A stretch of 11,198 nucleotides of DNA from a virus (lineage: Duplodnaviria > Heunggongvirae > Uroviricota > Caudoviricetes), in the IMG/VR virus record IMGVR_UViG_2734482782_000002, positions 1 to 11,198 of that record. The stretch is one strand, 5' to 3'. A program made the position numbers and the translations under genes. Positions 7,203 to 11,198 of this stretch are shown here, one piece after another (positions within the stretch are counted from its first letter, which is position 1; each line of letters opens with the position of its first letter). The notes under the pieces were generated by a model that had not been told where the DNA came from, searched no databases, and saw nothing but the letters and a program-made list of their open reading frames with translations.

Positions 7203-7491
7203 GGCTGACCTCCTGCCCGAAAGCCAGGGCATCTTCCAATTCATTAGCGGCATAAATCAGGGCGTTGTGATGCGCGCGAAAACCACCATCAAGTTCGCGA
7301 GCAGCTCTGTCGCGCAAGATGTCGATCGCAGCCTGATAGTCATTCTGGTAATCGGCCGAACTGGCCGGCAGCTCCGCCAGCACCATCAACATGTTTTCCG
7401 GGTCGATGGGAATGGTGGCGAGCCCGAGCTCTTTGGCCTCCGCTGCTAAACGGGTCCAGCGTTCAATAATTCCAGTGGTACCTTTTTTCAT
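7192..7491 (-). CDS. hypothetical phage early protein (99 aa)
   Basis: ORF with GAGG upstream of ATG 7491. Its stop overlaps the xis start by 11 nt (translational coupling). Function not recognised. Confidence 0.6.
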   Translation of the reverse strand: MKKGTTGIIERWTRLAAEAKELGLATIPIDPENMLMVLAELPASSADYQNDYQAAIDILRDRAARELDGGFRAHHNALIYAANELEDALAFGQEVSHES

Positions 7492-7499
7492 GGCATACC

Positions 7500-7595
7500 T
7501 CAGAAACCTATCAAAAATTTATACTCAATCAGCGCGCCGAAAACGACGGCCACCAGCAATAGGCCAAACAGCATAGAGAGGAAGAAATACTTCAT
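7500..7595 (-). CDS. 31-aa hydrophobic single-helix peptide (MKYFFLSMLFGLLLVAVVFGALIEYKFLIGF)
   Basis: Not in the ORF track (too short); translated by hand from the minus strand. Its ATG overlaps the TGA of the upstream gene (ATGA at 7592-7595), GAGG lies 7 nt upstream, and it fills the gap between two flanking genes exactly. Predicted single transmembrane helix. Confidence 0.45.
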   Translation of the reverse strand: MKYFFLSMLFGLLLVAVVFGALIEYKFLIGF

Positions 7596-7816
7596 CGTGA
7601 TGCCTCACGAAAAACAGCTCTGTATGCACGCAGCATGTCCCGTGACTTGCCGGATAAAACTGTCCTCAGGAAGAACATCCCGCTACGGGTTGCCACGATG
7701 CCGGGTGTGTGTAGCAGCGTGAAATCTACCACTCTGCTATGTTTTCGGAACTCAAACAGAGTGCTTGTGATAACGATGTTCGCCACGGCGCCATAGTCCT
7801 GATGTTGAATTTTCAT
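7592..7816 (-). CDS. hypothetical phage early protein (74 aa)
   Basis: ATGA start/stop overlap with the upstream gene at 7813-7816; AAGGA 6 nt upstream of the ATG. Confidence 0.55.
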   Translation of the reverse strand: MKIQHQDYGAVANIVITSTLFEFRKHSRVVDFTLLHTPGIVATRSGMFFLRTVLSGKSRDMLRAYRAVFREASR

Positions 7817-8034
7817 TTTCTGTCCTTCAGTTTGCTGTATCGTTCATGGCTCATTACTTCCCAGTTCTGGCTGCCGTCTCGGGACAGCAGTCGCCAGCGG
7901 CGATTAACCCTCAGGCTCAGATTTCCGGAGCCGTGCATTCGGCAGGGATGAATTCGCTTGGCTCTGAACTGGCGGAGTACATGGACCGCCTGCAGGTGTA
8001 CCCACTCAGGTATTCGTATCGCTGTCAGGGCCAT
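7813..8034 (-). CDS. hypothetical basic protein (73 aa)
   Basis: ORF track 7813..8157. Preferred start is the internal ATG at 8034, preceded by AGGAGAGAAGGACA. The longer version would overlap the next gene extensively in another frame. Confidence 0.45.
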   Translation of the reverse strand: MALTAIRIPEWVHLQAVHVLRQFRAKRIHPCRMHGSGNLSLRVNRRWRLLSRDGSQNWEVMSHERYSKLKDRK

Positions 8035-8218
8035 TGTCCTTCTCTCCTGCAGGTGGGGTGATCGTGTAACCGGCGCGTTCAGCCATCCATAAAAAAGTCT
8101 CCAGCGATGCTGTAACCTCTCCGTTCTGAACCGGGCGCGCGTGGATAACTTTCCCATTCTCGATTGTCAGCACGATATTTACTGGTTCGTGCGTGATAAT
8201 TGGTGTCTGATCACTCAT
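8006..8218 (-). CDS. hypothetical phage early protein (70 aa)
   Basis: ORF track 8006..8275. Preferred start ATG 8218 (MSDQTPII...) with GGAGA 6 nt upstream, immediately after the stop of the upstream gene. Confidence 0.5.
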   Translation of the reverse strand: MSDQTPIITHEPVNIVLTIENGKVIHARPVQNGEVTASLETFLWMAERAGYTITPPAGEKDNGPDSDTNT

Positions 8219-8576
8219 GGCTTGTCTCCGCTGTGACTGATTTTTGTTTCTTGGCAAACTCGACCAGCTCAGCAATGAGATCGTCGATTAATGCCTTTCC
8301 GCTTTCTGTCAGGAACTCACCGCTGCCATTCACATCTACGGCGTTGCTGTAAATTCCTCTGATGGCTTTTACGCCGTCGACATTCCCGTATTCACTGAGA
8401 GCCAGCTTTTCGAATCGTCTCAACAGACCATCAAGCAGTATTTCTGTTAATTCGACTGTGTTTATTCCACCCTTAGGCATATTAATAATGATGCAGGTGC
8501 TTCCGGTTTTACGCTGGTGGCGAAATAACGCAGCCTTTAAAATTCTTCGGCGATACGTATTGATTAAGTTATTCAC
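8211..8576 (-). CDS. hypothetical phage early protein (about 121 aa)
   Basis: ORF track 8211..8597 (GTG). An alternative GTG at 8576 has GAGGA 8 nt upstream and overlaps the stop of the preceding gene. Start uncertain; function not recognised. Confidence 0.5.
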   Translation of the reverse strand: MNNLINTYRRRILKAALFRHQRKTGSTCIIINMPKGGINTVELTEILLDGLLRRFEKLALSEYGNVDGVKAIRGIYSNAVDVNGSGEFLTESGKALIDDLIAELVEFAKKQKSVTAETSHE

Positions 8577-8760
8577 GTCGCTTTTCCTCTTCTTCACACC
8601 AGTACAATAAATTTGCCGAAGCGTTAAGAGCCATTCCTAGTAATGATTCCTTTTGATTTTTGCTTAACTCATTATTGCTTGTTACTATTTCTAGGATGGT
8701 GTTAAGGTTCTCCGCCTCTAAAAGGATTTCATCTATCCCTGCTGTTTTGGGGTTCCACAT
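8569..8760 (-). CDS. hypothetical small acidic protein (63 aa)
   Basis: ATG 8760 preceded by GGGAG with a 7-nt spacer. AT-rich coding sequence. Confidence 0.5.
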   Translation of the reverse strand: MWNPKTAGIDEILLEAENLNTILEIVTSNNELSKNQKESLLGMALNASANLLYWCEEEEKRRE

Positions 8761-8867
8761 TTACAATCTCCCATATGCTTTTTTAAGATAAAGTCGAGCG
8801 ATTACCTCATAACCACACGCCGCATAAAGGCATGCTGTTCTATATGCCGTTTTATCTTTGATGAAAG

Positions 8868-9254
8868 TCATATGAAGTGCCTCACAGCCAAAGAGGCGAC
8901 AACCCTTCCGTGTATACGCATGTCTTTTTGCTCATCCGCATTAAGCGTGAAAGTTTGGTAATGTAGATTGTCAGAAATAATCTTCAGCGCCCCGTCCGGA
9001 AAGGGTTCTATTCGCTTGATGAACAGGCAGTTACGGCCAAAAACATCGACCGTAAAAACATAGATGCCGGGTGTAAAAGCGCGCCCTCCACAATCAACGA
9101 AAGCTACAACCTCACAGGGTTCGATAGTCGGCTGCATTGAATCACCTTCCATCCTGCAGCTCTTAACTCTGTTTCCAAAATCATTAATATTGTCAGAGCC
9201 GAACAGCATTTGTGGTGCTTTAATTGGCTCGTTAAAAGAAAGTGAATTTTGCAT
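8868..9254 (-). CDS. standalone S24 (LexA/UmuD-like) peptidase-domain protein without an HTH domain
   Basis: ORF track 8868..9260; start probably the ATG at 9254 (GAGGAA 8 nt upstream). Contains GDSMQPT (Ser nucleophile motif) and a downstream ...FIKRIEP... (Lys of the Ser/Lys dyad), spaced as in the LexA/UmuD/cI C-terminal fold. No N-terminal DNA-binding domain. Confidence 0.6.
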   Translation of the reverse strand: MQNSLSFNEPIKAPQMLFGSDNINDFGNRVKSCRMEGDSMQPTIEPCEVVAFVDCGGRAFTPGIYVFTVDVFGRNCLFIKRIEPFPDGALKIISDNLHYQTFTLNADEQKDMRIHGRVVASLAVRHFI

Positions 9255-9315
9255 TTTCATTTCCTCGGGGTGAATTTGGTCACACCATTTAAGGTGTTTT
9301 ATTAATTATTTTTAT

Positions 9316-9534
9316 TTATAATGATTTAATTTCGAAGTTATTTATTTGTTCGTTTACTTCTTCTAATGTTTTTACAACTAAAGTAATTAATGCGTGTTCT
9401 CTTATTTCTTCCTCGGATGTCATTTTTTCAAGGAGTAACCATAATGAAGATGAACAACAAGTTATATCGTGCGCCCAACTCATGACCATAGAGCTTGTTT
9501 CATCTTTATTGAGAACTACAGTATCAGTTATCAT
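9316..9534 (-). CDS. hypothetical phage early protein (72 aa)
   Basis: ATGA overlap with the stop of the upstream gene (9531-9534); GGAGA 7 nt upstream. Very AT-rich 3' half. Confidence 0.5.
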   Translation of the reverse strand: MITDTVVLNKDETSSMVMSWAHDITCCSSSLWLLLEKMTSEEEIREHALITLVVKTLEEVNEQINNFEIKSL

Positions 9535-9746
9535 TGTTTGTTCTCCGGCCAGTCATGCCCGATTTCGCGATTTATAACTGAAAGATTTTTCTTTAATTGG
9601 TTGATGCAAATTTGAATGAGGGCTGCTGGCTTATAGCCAGTATCTGGATCAGATTCGGCATATTCAAGCACGTTTACCACGCGATCAATATCCATAGCTA
9701 GCTTGTGGATGGGACCATTTTCAGATACCAATTGTTGAGTGCTCAT
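9531..9746 (-). CDS. hypothetical protein, first gene of the leftward early operon (71 aa)
   Basis: ATG 9746 preceded by GGAGCAGGAAG; lies about 30 nt downstream of the predicted leftward promoter and operator. Confidence 0.55.
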   Translation of the reverse strand: MSTQQLVSENGPIHKLAMDIDRVVNVLEYAESDPDTGYKPAALIQICINQLKKNLSVINREIGHDWPENKQ

Positions 9747-9774
9747 CTTCCTGCTCCGTTTACTTGTTGATGAT

Positions 9775-9806
9775 TAAACAATACATAACGTATTAACAAG
9801 CGTCAA
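9775..9806 (-). promoter_or_regulatory. leftward early promoter (PL-like) with overlapping operator
   Basis: On the minus strand: TTGACG (-35, plus-strand 9801-9806), 17-nt spacer, TATTGT (-10, plus-strand 9778-9783). The 13-nt motif TACGTTATGTATT (plus-strand 9780-9792) overlaps the -10 and is identical to a motif in the cI-cro intergenic region. Confidence 0.5.
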
Positions 9807-9886
9807 TACAAAACGGATTAATCTGATGTATTAATTTTTATCTAGATGTTTATTAAGGCTTTTTTGTTCTATTTCGTGACGGAGGG

Positions 9887-9910
9887 AATAAAAAAAGCCG
9901 CTTTCGCGGC
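9887..9910 (-). terminator. rho-independent terminator downstream of the repressor gene
   Basis: On the minus strand GCCGC-GAAA-GCGGC followed by a run of seven T, starting 7 nt after the cI stop codon (9918-9920). Confidence 0.75.
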
Positions 9911-9917
9911 TTGTGCA

Positions 9918-10622
9918 CTATGGCAGGTTGGTTATTTTTGCATCGACCACGACGCCGATAATACGGCAATTACCATTTATGGGAATGATCGGGTATTGAG
10001 GGTTTAACGGCTTGAGGAATCGTTGACCAGCATCGATAACCAGCTTTTTGAAGGTGGCCTCGTTATCCCCATCGAGCTTAGCGACAACTAACTTTCCGTT
10101 GATGGGTTCAACCTGAGGATCGACCAGTATAACCATGCCTTCAGGAATGCTAAGCCCAGCTGGCGATGTCATCGAATCCCCTCTGACATCTAACCAGAAT
10201 GAATCTTCTGAACATTCCACGGTTGTATCATACCAGCGGTCGACCGCGCGCCTATGATATGGTTCTACTGCTTCCATCCAATCCCCTGCGCTGACCCAAC
10301 TGATTACGGGGTAGCGTCCTTTCGATTCATTCATGGCGTGAAATGACACATTGTGATCAGCTCTTGCGTCGCTCACTGCGCCGTCAGCGTCAACCACAAA
10401 ACCTGGCATTTGTAGAATTTTAAAAATTTTTGCTATGACCTCCAGGTTAGGTTCACGTCTTCCGTTCAGCCAATGGCCTAGCCCACCCTGTGTCATACCG
10501 AGTGCTTCAGCTAGCTGTTCTTGAGTCATTCCGACTTCTTTCATCCTGGATTTCGCCAGGTCCTGCCATCTCTGTTTCATAGACATGATTATTACAATCC
10601 GTATTTTTTGAGCAACTTCCAT
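9918..10622 (-). CDS. cI: prophage repressor, lambda cI-like (N-terminal XRE-type HTH plus C-terminal S24 autopeptidase domain)
   Basis: C-terminal ...GDSMTSPAGLSIPEGMVILVDP...ATFKKLV...FLKPLNPQYPIIP... closely resembles the lambda cI C-terminal domain as recalled. N-terminal ...MTQEQLAEALGMTQGGLGHWLNGRREP... is a helix-turn-helix. Start may be the ATG at 10622 (no SD, possibly leaderless) or the internal ATG near 10586. Confidence 0.9.
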   Translation of the reverse strand: MEVAQKIRIVIIMSMKQRWQDLAKSRMKEVGMTQEQLAEALGMTQGGLGHWLNGRREPNLEVIAKIFKILQMPGFVVDADGAVSDARADHNVSFHAMNESKGRYPVISWVSAGDWMEAVEPYHRRAVDRWYDTTVECSEDSFWLDVRGDSMTSPAGLSIPEGMVILVDPQVEPINGKLVVAKLDGDNEATFKKLVIDAGQRFLKPLNPQYPIIPINGNCRIIGVVVDAKITNLP

Positions 10623-10623
10623 T

Positions 10624-10668
10624 TTGTATTATTGTTTTATGTGTGTATAGTACGTTATGTATTATTTA
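10624..10668 (+). promoter_or_regulatory. rightward early promoter (PR-like) with operator, in the cI-cro intergenic region
   Basis: TTGTAT (10624-10629), 16-nt spacer, TATAGT (10646-10651), immediately followed by TACGTTATGTATT (10651-10663). Related ATGTATTA-type half-motifs recur in the region. Confidence 0.5.
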
Positions 10669-10684
10669 GATAGGAACTATCCGA

Positions 10685-10909
10685 ATGAGCGGTATTAAGA
10701 GCCTAAGGCTGAAAGCAAAAGTGACCCAGGGGGAGCTGGCAGCGTTGATCGCTAGCTCTCAAGGGGCCGTTAGCCACTACGAAACTGGTCGCCGAATCCC
10801 AGATATTGAAGTTGGGAAACGCATTGTGAGCGCCTTTAAGCAGCTCGGATATGAAACCAGTCTGGATGAGGTTTTTTCCGATGAACATACCGGAGAGCAA
10901 CTTCGATAA
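10685..10909 (+). CDS. cro: Cro-like HTH transcriptional regulator (XRE family)
   Basis: 74-aa ORF transcribed divergently from cI. HTH segment ...VTQGELAALIASSQGAVSHYETGRR.... AGGAA 8 nt upstream of the ATG. Confidence 0.8.
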   Translation: MSGIKSLRLKAKVTQGELAALIASSQGAVSHYETGRRIPDIEVGKRIVSAFKQLGYETSLDEVFSDEHTGEQLR

Positions 10910-11198
10910 CGCATTGCTGCCGGATACCCACTCAAAAGCTGATGCCGAGTGGATCAAGCAGCAGTTACTTAGCCTGACACCAACTGCACGACAAAAAGCT
11001 ATCCAGCGTTATGCAGCTGTGTATCAGGAGACGTTCGAAGCTGAACCCGTTTCCTACCGCAAGGAGAACCGGGCAAGGCATGAAGCAAACACAAGGCTTC
11101 GCCTGTTTGTGAGAAATCAGGGCAGAGCTTTACAGGGGTATACCGCCGAACCTCCCCTGGCTGGAACGCAATCGCGCTCCTCATTGTTTCGGGTTTAA
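10881..11198 (+). CDS. hypothetical early-right operon protein (cII position), function unknown
   Basis: ORF track 10851..11198. The chosen ATG at 10881 overlaps the cro 3' end by 29 nt; start uncertain. Stop codon TAA is the last three bases of the window. Family not recognised. Confidence 0.45.
   Translation: MNIPESNFDNALLPDTHSKADAEWIKQQLLSLTPTARQKAIQRYAAVYQETFEAEPVSYRKENRARHEANTRLRLFVRNQGRALQGYTAEPPLAGTQSRSSLFRV

Follow-up and report, generated by a model that had tools for sequence, protein, structure and literature searches.

A free-standing S24 catalytic core gene in the early-left region

The stretch of Caudoviricetes DNA analyzed here (hereafter the window; 11,198 nucleotides, positions 1 to 11,198 of IMG/VR record IMGVR_UViG_2734482782_000002) carries, on the minus strand at 8868..9260, a 130-codon open reading frame (ORF) that constitutes a free-standing S24 catalytic core gene, which we name S24s. 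Its translation contains the nucleophile serine motif G39-D40-S41-M42 (9135..9146, minus strand) and the general-base lysine motif F80-I81-K82-R83-I84 (9009..9023, minus strand), both read directly from the sequence. The Pfam family Peptidase_S24 (PF00717) matched S24s with an E-value of 9.7e-09 and a score of 35.4 bits, above the gathering cutoff of 23.3. This match covers only positions 32-116 of the 116-position profile, so the N-terminal third of the model, which includes the cleavage loop, is unmatched in S24s.

To place the motifs in a wider context, we used an alignment (A2) of S24s, its repressor relatives, and the repressors that adjoin S24s in other prophages. The Ser (GxSM) and Lys (KR) residues of S24s stand in register with those of the full-length repressors, and S41, M42, and K82 are invariant throughout. 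The initial annotation of this DNA had described an S24 domain of the LexA/UmuD/cI fold with Ser and Lys motifs, preceded by about 40 residues and without a helix-turn-helix (HTH) domain. That description is borne out by the Pfam match above the curated cutoff, by the positions of GDSM (39-42) and FIKRI (80-84), by the ~38 residues ahead of the Ser motif, and by the absence of any HTH family match in S24s; the neighboring cI matches both HTH_3 and the full Peptidase_S24 profile. The initial annotation had also assigned no known role to the protein, in agreement with the literature, in which searches for S24 phage proteins that stand alone or lack an HTH returned no characterized example.

The likely start of the gene lies slightly inside the annotated frame. 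Homologues of S24s are mostly 128 residues long, with their first residue at the third codon of the window ORF, and a Shine-Dalgarno-like GAGGAA (9261..9266, minus strand) is spaced appropriately for the ATG at 9254 rather than that at 9260. Translation therefore likely begins at ATG 9254 (M3) and yields a product of 128 amino acids, in which the catalytic serine would be residue 39 (S41 in the 130-residue numbering used here).

Organization and predicted control of the putative pL operon

The operon runs in the order o71, o72, S24s, o63, o128, o89, a ParE-like ORF, further small ORFs, xis, and int. S24s is thus the third gene behind a putative cI-repressed pL, consistent with its earlier assignment to an early-left operon. 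The candidate promoter, identified by promoter scan and sequence inspection, consists of TTGACG, a 17-nt spacer, and TATTGT (9778..9806, minus strand). A pattern search placed two operator-like sites of the form TAATAC-N5-GTATTA at 9779-9795 and 9804-9820, over the -10 and -35 elements of pL (9779..9820 in all). This pattern occurs 17 times in the window against 5.2 expected matches, and the other best-matching sites lie between cI and cro, at 10648-10664 and 10590-10606. The two clusters are probably OL and OR of this immunity type, with promoter and operators alike assigned by consensus match.

The repressor itself (9918..10622, minus strand) is a full-length cI-type protein with HTH_3 and Peptidase_S24 domains, as identified by Pfam and translation, and it has a lambda-cI-like layout with A112-G113, S150, and K192/193 (counted from the translation). 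Directly after its stop codon, a terminator scan detected an intrinsic-terminator-like hairpin with a T run (9895..9912, minus strand), a predicted element that separates cI from the pL operon. The first two operon genes, o71 (9531..9746, minus strand; 71 aa) and o72 (9316..9534, minus strand; 72 aa), have no family match, and both occur only in some of the prophages that carry S24s. The GC content of o72 and its surroundings is 28.5%, compared with 45-52% around them; sequence features suggest that o71 and o72 form a foreign cassette inserted right after pL.

Downstream of S24s, PHROGs matches were obtained for o63 (8569-8760, minus strand; phrog_8959) and o128 (8211-8597, minus strand; phrog_1737), both of which are syntenic with S24s. 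We considered an obligate pairing of S24s with o128 and rejected it because phages that lack S24s can also carry o128-like genes. Further along, o89 (8006-8275, minus strand; phrog_340) shows a weak antirepressor-family match, and its end is overlapped by a ParE-like toxin ORF (7813-8157, minus strand; PF24732, E-value 1.4e-18). Homologues of the latter are only ~73 residues long, so its real start is probably internal. These two ORFs may constitute a toxin-antitoxin-like pair in the early-left operon, and at many loci they accompany S24s in conserved order. PADLOC returned no defense-system match for S24s or its neighbors, and Rfam and tRNA scans of the window returned nothing.

The left flank of the prophage contains ypjC/B, a pinH-like fragment, and ypjA, an arrangement that identifies the host as Escherichia coli. 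The pinH-like recombinase fragment lies at ~1759-2016. The adhesin-like autotransporter gene ypjA is spread over three consecutive plus-strand ORFs (2157-3149, 3089-5191, and 5220-5546), which suggests frameshifts or a pseudogene. The prophage integrase gene (5866-7038) directly adjoins ypjA at its 3′ side, and the window holds no tRNA gene.

Searches for a LexA box at S24s were negative or at chance level. Given an operator-overlapped pL and the absence of a LexA box, expression of S24s is predicted only once cI is gone or upon infection; the gene should therefore be silent in a lysogen and be expressed early on infection or after cI inactivation. The initial annotation had proposed an SOS-sensing switch. 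Such a role is unlikely, because the promoter lies under cI-operator-like sites without a LexA box and because the protein lacks the cleavage loop described below.

S24s belongs to a conserved family of enterobacterial prophages

To determine how widely S24s is distributed, we searched 5.8 billion proteins and identified 153 relatives, almost all of them 128 residues in length, in Enterobacter, Citrobacter, Salmonella, Escherichia, Kluyvera, Kosakonia, Lelliottia, and other genera. Databases label these proteins either "S24 family peptidase", which is also the RefSeq name of the family, or, wrongly, "helix-turn-helix transcriptional regulator". Full-length homologues are encoded by the Escherichia phages Fostie, LMessi, and CharmingMan, as well as by Cronobacter phage ENT39118 and "Aeromonas" phage AsXd-1, whose records are both classed as Hendrixvirinae. 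In PHROGs, S24s matched phrog_6201 (E-value 1.8e-37), with residues 1-128 aligned to profile positions 1-119 of 121. The label of that entry, "CI-like repressor", is unsupported for this family because the DNA-binding domain is absent. The S24s family is already catalogued and has a known fold.

Evolutionary analysis revealed strong constraint. The median dN/dS was 0.12 (41 pairs among 12 genomic copies), and positions Ser41 and Lys82 show no or almost no variation across a 26-sequence alignment of the family. GDSM is present in 108 of ~120 cluster representatives, and the dyad is conserved in ~96% of representatives. Substitutions at the dyad were found in ~4 of ~110 full-length representatives of 90% clusters, affecting Ser in one and Lys in three; the natural variants are S to L and K to N/T. 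As judged from these comparisons, S24s is a real, functional gene in a coherent family under purifying selection. Lack of conservation, which the initial annotation had named as grounds for abandoning its proposal, is the opposite of what was found in a family spanning many genera with a dN/dS of this order.

S24s occupies a variable slot beside repressors of different lineages

The gap between the end of cI (9918) and the start of S24s (9260) measures 657 bp, close to the ~650 bp first reported. A comparison of homologous neighborhoods, which the initial annotation had recommended, revealed the same order of repressor, variable ORFs, and S24s in all 13 loci with enough flanking sequence. In each, 515-697 bp separate S24s from a full-length HTH+S24 repressor gene that lies upstream on the same strand, even where the S24s member is only 41% identical. 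The intervening ORFs vary. In two of the related loci, a 143-167-aa ORF directly upstream of S24s (L008:5509-5940 and L010:5443-5946) has an N-terminal stretch of ~60 residues that, on visual inspection, resembles an HTH of the XRE type. This putative second HTH protein, encoded between the repressor and S24s, showed no similarity to o71 or o72. A split-repressor arrangement, in which o71 or o72 would be homologous to the C-terminal half of this XRE-HTH protein, gained no support from BLASTP and was rejected.

Three different repressor lineages stand upstream of S24s across the loci. One locus (L012) encodes a cI that is 97% identical to that of the window together with an S24s that is 56% identical, and another (L006) shows the reverse, with 56% identity in cI and 90% in S24s. 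S24s therefore does not co-vary with immunity type, and its pairing with cI is not specific. Moreover, S24s is absent from close relatives, namely, E. coli DX6, E. coli UMNK88, Klebsiella phage ST11-OXA48phi15.1, and Fels-1, in which other small ORFs occupy the same slot, and it was found in only 10 of 5,426 complete E. coli genomes. Because the slot varies among close relatives and the gene is rare in E. coli, S24s is optional cargo in a variable early slot and not a core part of the switch.

S24s also shows no detectable kinship to the repressor beside it. BLASTP of S24s against the window cI gave an E-value of 1.2, in line with the initial view that S24s is not a recent duplicate of the cI C-terminal domain. 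Alignment of the S24s family to the single window-cI sequence with hhalign gave a probability below 1%, a comparison that is insensitive with a one-sequence template.

S24s derives from COG2932-type repressors and lacks the cleavage loop

S24 regulators fall into two recognized groups, COG1974 (LexA/UmuD) and COG2932 (phage repressors) (PMC13148647). A profile search of 1.84 billion representative sequences delineated S24s as a tight family, with only six matches below 1e-30. After a gap, the next matches (E-values of 1e-15 to 1e-8) were the C-terminal domains of repressors of 200-250 residues, and the viral fold neighbors of S24s were likewise full-length CI/COG2932 repressors. By these sequence relationships, S24s stands closest to the C-terminal domains of COG2932-type phage repressors, rather than to UmuD, LexA, or the neighboring cI, and is best described as a truncated offshoot of the COG2932 group.

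Comparison with these CI/C2-like repressors (200-250 aa) reveals both shared and distinctive features. Identity is ~22-32% over S24s residues ~28-126, and the shared elements comprise the GDSMxPTI and F/YIKRLQ...SDN motifs and an LFG segment before the core. What sets S24s apart from the repressors is the lack of an HTH, a linker, and an Ala-Gly/Cys-Gly loop, a family-specific four-residue insertion before the Lys strand, and a gene that belongs to the lytic pL operon and is not the immunity gene.

The cleavage loops of the aligned full-length relatives (AKAG, SASCG, VEAG, RASAG, SVSAG, and FACG) lie ~22-26 columns N-terminal of the column that holds S24s residue 9. S24s thus begins just past the position of the loop. 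A search of S24s for an Ala-Gly/Cys-Gly cleavage loop ~35-45 residues ahead of the serine found none, and residues 1-20 contain no Gly. Since the scissile loop is missing, self-cleavage in the manner of LexA, cI, or UmuD is not expected, which makes the possibly RecA-responsive module of the initial annotation unlikely as a self-cleaver.

The AlphaFold model of S24s has a pLDDT of 71 (45-63 in the first 50 residues, where the Ser region lies) and superposes best on S24 structures, namely, LexA (10.7 and 9.5), the lambda cI C-terminal domain (9.2), and UmuD′ (8.7). A fold search with this model thus predicts a LexA-type beta fold. Sequence searches of the PDB with the single S24s sequence and with the family profile retrieved no S24 structure, and the structural link comes through the fold search. 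Assignment to the S26 signal peptidases was considered and rejected: S24s showed neither an N-terminal membrane anchor nor a fold match to S26 stronger than that to S24.

Other short S24 proteins without an HTH are also present in phage genomes. We noted three kinds that are unrelated to S24s, at four loci (122-132 aa; L074:4001-4396, L075:1408-1806, L076:4001-4369, and L077:1145-1513): one in the early operon of a Mu-like phage, where GemA and Mor flank it, one upstream of an integrase gene, and one divergent from replication genes. For the last type, a second contig shows an overlapping 115-aa ORF ahead of the gene, which could be a split repressor. Such occurrences hint, at the sequence level, that HTH loss from S24 repressors is recurrent.

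S24s differs from UmuD and HumD

Similarity in size and domain content invites comparison with UmuD′ and with HumD of phage P1. All are S24 proteins of 115-130 residues without a DNA-binding domain, and HumD is phage encoded; it is the one characterized phage S24 protein known to be genetically pre-truncated, its gene product beginning exactly at the equivalent of UmuD Gly25. HumD reportedly serves as a functional homologue of UmuD′ (McLenigan et al. 1999, cited in PMC11541004). S24s lacks the sequence relationship, the LexA box, and the UmuC partner that would extend the likeness. The NCBIfam UmuD model NF007621, included in the profile searches proposed by the initial annotation, was not matched by S24s at E ≤ 0.1, whereas the window cI matched it at 7.6e-12. 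BLASTP of S24s against P1 HumD gave an E-value of 0.52. The family alignment scored a probability of 0.2% against a single UmuD sequence (PDB 8gmt_B except for that entry's Lys-to-Ala change at position 97) and gave no signal against a single, approximate LexA sequence; hhalign is insensitive with such one-sequence templates. A Pfam scan of the window found no umuC-type or other polymerase domain in the ORFs downstream of S24s, as the initial annotation had stated of a umuC-like partner.

Two further observations separate the proteins. The annotated LexA site of humD has no counterpart at S24s, and the GDSM motif of HumD has decayed to ADSHH, whereas S24s keeps the canonical GDSMQPTI. Because HumD needs no catalysis and has lost the motif, its retention in S24s is informative. 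Furthermore, phage ENT39118 has a separate UmuD-like gene elsewhere (record positions 37707-38087) in addition to the S24s homologue of its early-left region (L002 4001-4387), so its two HTH-less S24 proteins are not redundant.

A possible S24 module acting in trans

Collectively, S24s is very probably an ~128-residue free-standing S24 Ser-Lys peptidase core that derives from a COG2932-type repressor C-terminal domain, has lost the HTH and the Ala-Gly loop, evolves under purifying selection, and is an optional passenger gene that HK97-like temperate phages of Enterobacteriaceae carry in a variable slot immediately behind pL. S24 proteins such as LexA, the lambdoid repressors, and UmuD are universal readers of the RecA* DNA-damage signal. 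To our knowledge, every characterized member either self-cleaves or, like UmuD′ and HumD, is the product of such cleavage and works with Pol V.

A protein that neither binds DNA nor cuts itself, and yet preserves the catalytic dyad, most plausibly works in trans. We tentatively propose, as a plausible though not yet probable reading of the sequence evidence, that S24s acts on the LexA-type cleavage loop of another protein, cleaving it or at least capturing it. A trans-acting protease, which the strictly kept dyad favors, was not among the options of the initial annotation. Its promoter, overlapped by cI-operator-like sites, would confine production of S24s to early infection or the time after induction. 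Without DNA binding or a scissile loop of its own, and with the GDSM serine and KR lysine strictly kept, its unoccupied LexA-type active-site cleft could accept the cleavage loop of a second protein. The most economical substrates would be host LexA, UmuD, and the cI-type repressors of this or co-resident prophages. Because S24s does not co-vary with immunity type, the target would be a generic or host-level feature, be it LexA, UmuD, RecA*, or Ala-Gly loops in general, and not the private dimer surface of the cognate repressor. The outcome may be an accessory early-lytic role, such as commitment or feed-forward, SOS manipulation, or interference with rival prophages, and not that of a core switch component.

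There are biochemical precedents for such activity. Kim and Little reportedly found in 1993 that C-terminal fragments of LexA and lambda cI can act in trans and cut further repressor molecules, and in a UmuD dimer one subunit cleaves the other. By analogy, a core without its own scissile loop might cleave the loop of another molecule. Those fragments were laboratory products that cut other molecules slowly in vitro; S24s, with its putative activity, is encoded in nature and under selection. Several considerations temper the trans model. Conservation of the dyad could stem partly from structural roles of the motifs, and in a few natural variants the dyad is replaced (S to L or K to N/T). An early gene that destroyed cI-type repressors would oppose the establishment of lysogeny, unless it were weak or specific for other targets. 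The Ser region is modeled at low confidence, so the predicted state of the active-site cleft is tentative.

A more specific form of the proposal is a dedicated, RecA-independent S24 protease that would cut in trans the Ala-Gly loops of host LexA, of the phage's own or rival repressors, or of both once pL fires. We regard this stronger version as doubtful.

Separate proteases that act on repressors are known from another catalytic class, and S24s would be their functional counterpart. ImmA cleaves the XRE repressor ImmR of a mobile element. IrrE, likewise the product of a separate protease gene, acts in trans on the XRE stress repressor DdrO (PMC6868357). ImmA and IrrE differ from S24s in being COG2856 metalloproteases rather than Ser-Lys S24 enzymes.

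Alternative explanations

The main rival, in line with the decoy for repressor cleavage that the initial annotation offered as its second option, is that S24s might instead be a non-catalytic binder of RecA*, which would dock in the filament groove without being consumed and damp co-protease activity. The S24 fold is common to all known RecA* co-protease clients, although the cleavage loop that S24s lacks may itself contribute to LexA docking on RecA*. Such a decoy could protect newly made cI during the establishment of lysogeny, or block rival-prophage induction and SOS during lytic growth, and the lack of covariation with cI type would fit a conserved host target. Binding to the RecA groove is shared by DinI, LexA, UmuD, and cI (PMC9926225). 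A precedent exists in Hex of phage 434, an accessory protein of the immunity region by which RecA-mediated autocleavage of repressors is blocked (PMC3564112). Like S24s, Hex is a small protein encoded beside the repressor, and its modulation of RecA-stimulated autocleavage is specific for some repressors; it differs in being made from PRM in the lysogen and in stabilizing lysogeny, and the abstract of PMC3564112 does not describe it as an S24 protein, whereas S24s is predicted to be expressed from pL. Binding, however, requires no Ser/Lys dyad, yet S24s keeps it while the non-catalytic HumD let its GDSM decay, and expression from pL in an induced lysogen comes only after cI has been inactivated. 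On balance, we consider a RecA* decoy possible but on the unlikely side.

A trans-acting peptidase need not target SOS proteins or repressors. The conserved dyad would equally serve cleavage of a co-transcribed phage protein or of a host defense or regulatory protein, and S24s would then resemble the stand-alone maturation peptidases of S24/S26-like type; a weak match to the NCBIfam model of the Ni-SOD maturation protease (E-value 0.006) points the same way. The location is also suggestive: S24s sits in a hypervariable early slot of the kind in which phages often keep host-takeover or anti-defense genes, sister phages carry other small ORFs there, and in phage Fostie the operon also includes Lar-like and antirepressor genes. 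Yet no conserved partner gene depends on S24s, as o128-like genes occur without it, PADLOC gave no match, and descent from repressor C-terminal domains would imply a cleft shaped for an Ala-Gly loop. A substrate of this unrelated kind is therefore rather unlikely in our estimation.

The constant position of S24s next to an HTH+S24 repressor gene raises the idea of a dominant-negative subunit that would heterodimerize with its own cI, poison cooperative operator binding, and lock the lytic decision, with the cI-controlled promoter providing positive feedback. [quoted passage not shown] A UmuD′-like subunit for host UmuC (Pol V), or a modulator of translesion synthesis, would have a counterpart in P1 HumD, a phage-encoded, HTH-less S24 protein of UmuD′ size. 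We judge it highly improbable given the unmatched UmuD model, the lack of similarity to UmuD and HumD, the absence of a nearby umuC and of a LexA box, and the separate UmuD-like gene in ENT39118. That S24s is a decaying, functionless remnant of a second repressor gene, as its resemblance to a repressor minus the N-terminal half might suggest, can be set aside almost entirely in the face of the low dN/dS, the conserved motifs, and the same 128-residue architecture across many genera and isolated phages.

Implications

In S24s, natural selection maintains an S24 core with its catalytic dyad but without a scissile loop or a DNA-binding domain, encoded in the lytic early operon beside the immunity switch. 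Recognition of these features would correct the database label "CI-like repressor". If S24s proves to be a minor accessory protease, the result would amount to a routine refinement of annotation. If the RecA-independent protease version of the trans model holds, S24s would be a protein-level feed-forward commitment switch, or a weapon of cross-induction or interference against co-resident prophages. Given the other HTH-less S24 phage genes, a trans-acting S24 protease could be a recurrent strategy. More broadly, should S24s cleave or sequester LexA-type proteins, or block RecA*, it would subject prophage induction, SOS, and competition among prophages to a previously unrecognized level of control in Enterobacteriaceae that include clinical Enterobacter, Citrobacter, Salmonella, and E. 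coli.
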